Positions 61,255 through 61,305 of a stretch of DNA of 64,000 bases are shown here, one piece after another. The notes below the pieces were generated by a model. It ran no database searches, was not told the DNA's origin, and worked only from the letters and a program-made list of their open reading frames with translations. Position 1 is the stretch's first letter. Each line of letters opens with the position of its first letter. Position numbers and translations under genes: made by a program. Origin of the DNA: Escherichia coli. GTDB taxonomy: Bacteria; Pseudomonadota; Gammaproteobacteria; Enterobacterales; Enterobacteriaceae. The stretch is from NCBI RefSeq assembly GCF_024700885.2, contig NZ_CP117016.1; one strand, 5' to 3'.

Positions 61255-61276
61255 TTCGATTCCGAGTCCGGCACCA
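61255..61276 (+). repeat. 3'-terminal fragment of tRNA-Phe (TTCGATTCCGAGTCCGGCACCA): island attachment-site direct repeat
   Basis: Matches the T-arm and acceptor 3' end of E. coli tRNA-Phe including CCA, with one G missing; no upstream D or anticodon arm, so not an intact tRNA. Confidence 0.6.
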
Positions 61277-61282
61277 CTATTC

Positions 61283-61305
61283 TAAAGAACCCGCCCACAA
61301 GGCGG
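61283..61305 (+). terminator. rho-independent terminator following the tRNA-Phe fragment
   Basis: CCCGCCCACAAGGCGGG hairpin followed by TTTTTGCTTTT. Confidence 0.55.

Follow-up and report, generated by a model that had tools for sequence, protein, structure and literature searches.

A tRNA-Phe 3'-end fragment beside the kps capsule locus of Escherichia coli as the attR of a pheV island

The ends of integrated islands are marked by a regenerated tRNA gene and a displaced tRNA fragment, as described in PMC4383910, and the attB of integrases targeting phe-, leu-, asn- and arg-tDNA starts in the T-loop (bioRxiv 10.1101/2020.11.02.365908). The fragment considered here lies at positions 61255–61276 of the window, i.e., the whole 64-kb stretch of E. 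coli DNA that was analysed, and its closest described counterparts are the GI-pheV islands surveyed in PLoS Genet 2024 (PMC11537424). In that survey, the attR of GI-pheV is tabulated as TTCGATTCCGAGTCCGG-CACCA and called a 23-bp imperfect repeat, and the strains carrying it include APEC O1, S88, ED1a, H10407, 12009, 55989, O104:H4 outbreak strains, 042, 536, REL606, and others (PMC11537424). The surveyed islands are modular and share flu and yee modules (PMC11537424). The present locus has the identical attR, including the gap, at the same pheV-distal end after flu/yee, and likewise a P4-type integrase beside pheV. However, the island measures ~157 kb, whereas the 41 reference islands of the survey span 9.7–110 kb, and it carries two type VI secretion system (T6SS) clusters, pic, and a CTX-M-15/Tn21-type resistance region. 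As such, the fragment itself is already known, being an ordinary, published island boundary.

The order kpsF, truncated pheV, island, P4-like integrase, pheV is also that of PAI-V, known as PAI V536 in strain 536 (Nat Commun 2023, PMC10272209), where PAI-V is recognised by a truncated copy of pheV on the contig with kpsF, and where recombination between the 22-bp repeats is inferred to have excised the island at least 14 times in CC95. PAI-V differs from the present island in its size of about 50 kb and in its cargo (ireA, pap, pix), and the capsule region-2 genes at the present locus are of a different type. Middendorf 2004 is reportedly the original source of the excision data for PAI V536. 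In PMC4891358, PAI V of strain 536 is described as having 23-bp flanking repeats and as excising through its own integrase or, at a comparable rate, through the integrase of PAI II. The SHI-1 (she) PAI of Shigella flexneri 2a, also located at pheV, has at its ends the last 22 bp of the gene as an imperfect repeat, between whose copies it excises precisely (PMC1550401). SHI-1 carries pic, as does the island in E. coli MLI114, the complete genome compared below, yet it is without the T6SS and resistance modules and its right flank is not kps. Its size is about 46 kb. Finally, the P4 and CP4-57-type systems have in common with the present island a tyrosine integrase beside a regenerated tRNA gene, an identity block reaching from the T-loop to CCA, an AlpA-family gene, and paired short repeats in both arms placed like arm-type sites. 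In contrast to these systems, the present island is without phage genes, its mobility is putative, and its arm sites are candidates.

On the plus strand, positions 61255–61276 read TTCGATTCCGAGTCCGGCACCA, a 22-nt direct-repeat copy of tRNA-Phe positions 54–76 minus one G of the GGG run, which forms the core of the proposed attR. The 3' end of both E. coli phe tRNA genes is TTCGATTCCGAGTCCGGGCACCA (23 nt; K-12 pheV, K-12 pheU, and MLI114 pheV), and aligned to it, the core shows no substitution, no insertion, and a single deletion, namely a G of the GGG run. The deletion noticed in the preliminary description is thus real, and the same form has been published for attR (PMC11537424). The core spans the T-loop, the 3' strands of both the T-stem and the acceptor stem, the discriminator A, and CCA; identity to the gene sets in exactly with the first T-loop base and lasts up to and including CCA. 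The preliminary description had spoken of a copy of the T-arm and acceptor end with CCA; the 22-bp copy and its CCA stand, but of the T-stem only the 3' strand is included, as the copy starts at T-loop base 54. The core is the sole match in the window at up to three mismatches, and 100 dinucleotide-preserving shuffles gave zero core matches, with none expected by chance. ARAGORN found no tRNA gene in the 64-kb window, and a scan of the window with Rfam gave no tRNA match. A functional tRNA gene was rejected, as only positions 54–76 are present and neither ARAGORN nor Rfam detects a cloverleaf. The single Rfam match of the window is an IS102 RNA (RF00124, 72.5 bits) at 44571–44807, which lies upstream of, and overlaps the start of, the open reading frame for the autotransporter Ag43 at 44751–47672.

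Directly downstream of the core, positions 61277–61323 (plus strand; 47 bases) match the DNA downstream of K-12 pheV with one deletion and one substitution. The core and this flank together (61255–61323) are collinear with the K-12 stretch that begins at pheV position 54 and ends 48 bp past the gene, with 95.8% identity over 71 positions in a three-way alignment and in BLAST. The flank includes a stem-loop at 61285–61311 with 11 pairs, six of them G-C, followed in the terminator scan by T-rich sequence up to about 61318; the predicted fold has an energy of -18.8 kcal/mol (z = -3.7). The hairpin and T-tract of the preliminary description are therefore both real, but the terminator reaches about 61318 and not 61305, where that description had ended it. 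The hairpin is conserved 3' of pheV in K-12 and has the predicted features of a rho-independent terminator. Because the same hairpin is found in the collinear K-12 pheV flank, the hairpin and T-tract are the ancestral, native pheV terminator, parted from its gene by the insertion, rather than island sequence. A boundary of a pheU island was considered and rejected, since the K-12 pheU flank (toward cadC) is unrelated to 61277–61323; a genuine pheU attR, found in strain CH4784, carries that other flank.

Homology to K-12 stops at 61323 and, in the MLI114 genome, resumes at the yghD stop codon ~18 kb further on, past the kps region. The DNA that begins there (61324–62466, plus strand) stands in for 101 bp of the K-12 spacer between pheV and yghD and leads to kpsF at 62467–63450, annotated in MLI114, with the rest of the capsule cluster beyond. 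Between the pheV terminator and kpsF lies a C-terminal remnant (60 aa) of an IS110-family transposase at 61474–61656. This remnant is kept at the same spot in strains that have kps and no island, and it is therefore part of the kps insertion and not of the pheV island. The kps locus is a separate insertion between the terminator and yghD, which adjoins the repeat-bounded island and lies outside it. The adjacency of island and capsule genes that had been proposed thus holds, with kps just beyond the repeat and the terminator joined directly to kps in island-free strains. Judging from this anatomy, the old terminator, now placed between the last island gene and kps, probably blocks read-through from the island into the capsule genes.

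To the left of the core, the layout of the island can be followed in E. coli MLI114. Over its 64 kb, the window is collinear with and 99.998% identical to the reverse complement of MLI114 NZ_CP117013.1 positions 830505–894503, with a single 1-nt indel relative to that chromosome, located between 39856 and 61099; the window therefore represents a sister isolate or a different version of the MLI114 assembly. In MLI114, an intact pheV stands beside yqgA and is adjoined by a P4-type tyrosine integrase of full length (420 aa; NF007246 integrase domain, E = 1e-73). This pheV lies to the left, and the distance from its 3' end to the fragment, which has the same orientation, is 157.2 kb. The intact gene and second repeat copy that the preliminary description had expected elsewhere in the genome were thus both located, at pheV, and the island occupies record positions 833229–990456 (~157 kb). 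Within the 157 kb between pheV and the fragment, no further copy of the repeat was found at up to four edits, and no second P4-type integrase is present among the annotations. Since there is no internal repeat copy and MLI114 is nearly identical, all window DNA left of 61255 is island DNA. This assignment of the left 61 kb, including the T6SS, CP4-like and IS DNA that had been suspected of belonging to a phe-tRNA-associated island, rests on the near-identical complete genome, as pheV and the integrase lie outside the window.

According to the MLI114 annotation, the right-hand 61 kb of the island (1–61254) comprise ibrAB-like genes, a T6SS cluster, and a CP4-like module. The T6SS cluster is complete, encodes Tle1/Tli1, and lies on the minus strand at about 8.5–34.5 kb. 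The CP4-like module consists of alpA, yfjI, a GTPase gene, the genes for Ag43 (flu) and IrmA, IS66, cbtA/yeeU toxin-antitoxin genes, and a DUF4942 gene split by ISEc10. The pieces of this interrupted gene are found at 58166–58579 (N-terminal) and 60983–61144 (C-terminal, plus strand), the latter being the last island gene before attR, and the IS21-family ISEc10 insertion is at 58671–60918, its istA being frameshifted in the MLI114 annotation. Reading leftward in MLI114, the CP4-like module is followed by the T6SS with Tle1/Tli1, the ibrAB-like genes, a second, aai-type T6SS, and pic. Beyond pic come a DNA-modification and helicase cluster (DEAD/DEAH-box helicase, site-specific DNA methyltransferase, S8 peptidase, AAA ATPase, and SNF2-related protein), a Tn21-type resistance region with a class 1 integron, mer, tet(A), TEM-1, and CTX-M-15, and then the integrase, intact pheV, and yqgA. 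In EAEC 042, the aai T6SS and pic are found at pheU.

The fragment is almost certainly attR, the pheV-distal attachment site of a GI-pheV island inserted by a P4-type tyrosine integrase. The partial tRNA copy is in direct orientation, on the same strand as the intact pheV of MLI114, and strains without the island lack the intervening DNA. Such empty sites, where pheV passes directly into the terminator, were found in K-12, UPEC129, KE48, MS21324, M9682-C1, and HCP5S3_I2. The order in K-12 is pheV, terminator, yghD, and in UPEC129, KE48, MS21324, and M9682-C1 it is yqgA, pheV, the same terminator, the IS110 remnant, and kpsF. The island boundary first suggested from the repeat alone is thereby borne out by the match of the core to the pheV 3' end (22 of 23 nt), by the pheV-type flank, and by the island-free strains. 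A 116-nt junction probe spanning the island end, the repeat, and the flank was at least 80% covered in 2142 of 5426 complete E. coli genomes.

In the proposed mechanism, the integrase would split pheV within its last 23 bp. The left end of the island would bring a copy of those bases together with a terminator, giving a complete pheV beside yqgA (attL), and the second, partial copy would end up ~157 kb away at the right end of the island, joined to the original terminator and downstream DNA. This partial copy would be a DNA recombination site with no RNA function. Together with the copy inside pheV, attR may serve as the substrate from which the integrase excises the island as a circle, probably with the help of an AlpA-type directionality factor. 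Directly after pheV, the left end of the island has its own terminator hairpin (-17.6 kcal/mol, z -6.3; minus strand), and with this replacement the regenerated pheV is therefore a complete transcription unit. The sequence of this left end also follows pheU in K-12, together with an integrase remnant (yjdQ), and K-12 pheU therefore carries the stump of an old island.

Two direct GGGTACA repeats, 12 bp apart (61184–61202, plus strand), are found to the left of the core at distances of 71 and 59 bp. Related motifs occur on the attL side, namely GGGTATA at +126, GGGCATA at +138, and TGTACCC, in inverted orientation, at +163 relative to the core; they lie shortly before the integrase start codon, and the background of motifs of this type is 0.36 per kb. 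Analogous paired repeats are found at the same distance from the core in other genera. From their position, the GGGTACA repeats are candidate arm-type integrase-binding sites of the right arm. Likewise, the 68-aa AlpA-family helix-turn-helix protein encoded at 39649–39855 (plus strand; Pfam Phage_AlpA PF05930, E = 1e-8) is likely a recombination directionality factor, or excisionase, of the island; it matches the excisionase domain TIGR01764 weakly and below the cut-off of that model (E = 8e-5). The alpA gene sits in mid-island, ~135 kb from the integrase, and heads a CP4-like module that has no integrase of its own. This position hints that the 157-kb island is composite.

The missing G is the sole point somewhat beyond the literature compared. 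It represents the standard E. coli form of the GI-pheV attR and is neither a sequencing error nor random local decay. Perfect GGG versions exist and are rare: this island end and flank joined to a GGG attR were found exactly and at full length in two genomes (Z247 and D2), compared with hundreds for GG, with the qualification that the identity bands of the two forms are confounded by partial-length exact matches and that the GGG figure comes from the top-ranked matches. It is possible, if somewhat short of an even chance, that the displaced fragment has lost the G repeatedly through decay after integration, by slippage in the G run, and that this form became common as islands with imperfect repeats are lost less readily, the element itself not carrying the deletion. 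The displaced fragment is chromosomal and, by the classical rule (PMC4383910), free of selection, and the idea that imperfect repeats stabilise islands has been raised before (PMC11537424). The same deletion is also found in other genera in fragments of about 22, 48, and 76 nt, which suggests more than one origin. However, the identical island end with a G-less core occurs at pheU in CH4784, beside the different, pheU flank, which speaks against decay in place. Furthermore, when 100,044 species-representative genomes were scanned for exact matches to the GG form only, the G-less 22-mer turned up at 22 loci. About a dozen other genera of Enterobacterales are represented, among them Yersinia, Budvicia, Citrobacter, Pantoea, Erwinia, Xenorhabdus, Sodalis, Rouxiella, Edwardsiella, Pectobacterium, Brenneria, and Limnobaculum. 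Several of these loci have diverged island ends that keep the short direct-repeat pair at the same distance from the core, which likewise argues against decay; at others the homology to the tRNA gene extends to about 48 nt and at one, in Pantoea sp. IMH, to the full length.

Two further observations speak against decay and concern the position of the crossover and the behaviour of G runs. In AVS0662, the attR of the other common E. coli type reads TTTCATTCCGATTCCGGGCACCA, and departs from the tRNA gene solely within its left 12 nt, agreeing with K-12 throughout the right 11 nt and the flank, as would be expected of a crossover near the 3' end with DNA from the element to its left. In addition, a control deletion in the longer and more slippage-prone GGGG run of the gene was seen in none of the 5426 genomes, and for a second control deletion, near the 5' end of the tRNA gene, the local alignment trimmed the end. 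An element-borne deletion, with exchange in the last ~7–11 bp, is accordingly slightly more likely than recurrent decay. In its widest form, this explanation holds that tRNA-Phe P4-type islands across Enterobacterales carry the G deletion as a conserved, element-borne part of their attP core, that productive exchange is thereby confined to the last ~7–11 bp, and that loss of an island by exchange left of the G run leaves a 75-nt phe tRNA gene whose acceptor stem is damaged, a built-in cost of loss; taken as a whole, it is possible but less likely than not.

Full-length phe tRNA genes of 75 nt with exactly the attR-type G deletion were found in 22 of 5426 complete E. coli genomes, and their sequence passes precisely from the left part of attL into the right part of attR. 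Seven were inspected, among them UPEC129 (extract 3501–3575), KE48, MS21324, and M9682-C1 (all at pheV with a kps flank), HCP5S3_I2 (pheV), and EC7518 (pheU). By flank, four of the seven are at pheV beside kps, one at pheV with a K-12-like flank, one at pheV followed by a large toxin gene, and one at pheU; no integrase adjoins any of them, and at six the pheV or pheU site is plainly empty. These alleles are probably scars of island loss, and exchange left of the G run therefore occurs at least sometimes. ARAGORN calls the 75-nt genes tRNA-Phe only after shifting the gene start by one base, and by inspection the normal acceptor stem cannot form, which makes their function doubtful. The occurrence of the G deletion in phe tRNA genes that are complete in all other respects suggests that an island, when lost, can leave the tRNA gene damaged; the deletion could serve as a cheap marker of past island loss and for mapping the positions at which integrases cut.

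A different question is which element made the repeat. It could be that a smaller CP4-like element reaching from alpA to DUF4942 (about 22 kb, 39.6–61.2 kb) did so and that the fragment is the end of that element, the T6SS, pic, and multidrug resistance genes having been added by later accretion or by tandem integration with loss of the internal att sites; such an origin is possible but rather unlikely. In CP4-57-type elements, int and alpA are usually found together, and the distance between them in the present island is in keeping with a composite history, as are the modular nature of GI-pheV with its shared flu and yee modules (PMC11537424) and the occurrence of the identical right end and repeat on other islands at both pheV and pheU. 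Against it stands the lack of a second repeat (up to four edits) and of a second P4-type integrase in the 157 kb, and the whole island is therefore the only repeat-bounded unit today. Moreover, a composite origin concerns the history of the island and leaves the nature of the fragment unchanged.

The fragment, read as attR, might also be a dead relic that the deletion, the size of the island, and its IS load have deprived of its role as a recombination site, leaving the island fixed; this we regard as doubtful. Against continued mobility of the 157-kb island speak its many IS elements, its imperfect repeat, and the ~135 kb between integrase and candidate excisionase, and the scarcity of the full-length GGG version is as expected if islands with imperfect repeats persist. 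Yet islands with the same attR excise, namely PAI V of 536 (PMC4891358), SHI-1 (PMC1550401), and PAI-V in CC95 (PMC10272209), and the integrase gene of the present island is full length. The 75-nt genes with the attR-type deletion, all seven integrase-free where inspected and six of these at empty sites, are also the expected product of recombination between the two copies, which argues against a relic. Lastly, an explanation by chance similarity, or by a duplicate tRNA gene that decayed independently of site-specific integration, has nothing in its favour beyond the shortness of the fragment and is refuted by the flank alignment and the empty-site comparison, given the lack of matches in shuffled sequence, a copy that runs exactly from T-loop to CCA, the authentic pheV flank that follows, and the intact gene and integrase at the far end of DNA absent from island-free strains.

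For annotation, the fragment gives the right boundary of the pheV island to the base. The T6SS, Ag43, and toxin-antitoxin genes in the window are thereby mobile-island cargo, and the capsule locus is a separate neighbouring insertion; such boundary annotation is routine and published knowledge for E. coli.

A synthetic query joining right end, core, and left end was used to search for a free attP; it had no match in phages, and none of its matches in plasmids was an informative free attP. The plasmid matches came from misfiled chromosomes, from a dubious 29-kb 'plasmid' in which kps DNA of E. coli is present, and from a fossil on ETEC plasmids. The 29-kb record, Klebsiella oxytoca MSB1_10D 'plasmid 4', contains an E. 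coli island end, attR, the pheV terminator, and kpsF/kpsE, and looks like a misassigned or contaminating E. coli contig. The fossil, found in the ETEC plasmid pUMNK88_Ent and about 50 other E. coli plasmids, combines a diverged island right end with the 22-nt fragment TTCGCTTCCGAGTCCTGCACCA and the first part of the pheV terminator. The STb enterotoxin gene is about 200 bp away from it (pUMNK88_Ent extract about 2500–2600), and the fossil is evidently a piece of a chromosomal pheV attR region captured on ETEC plasmids.
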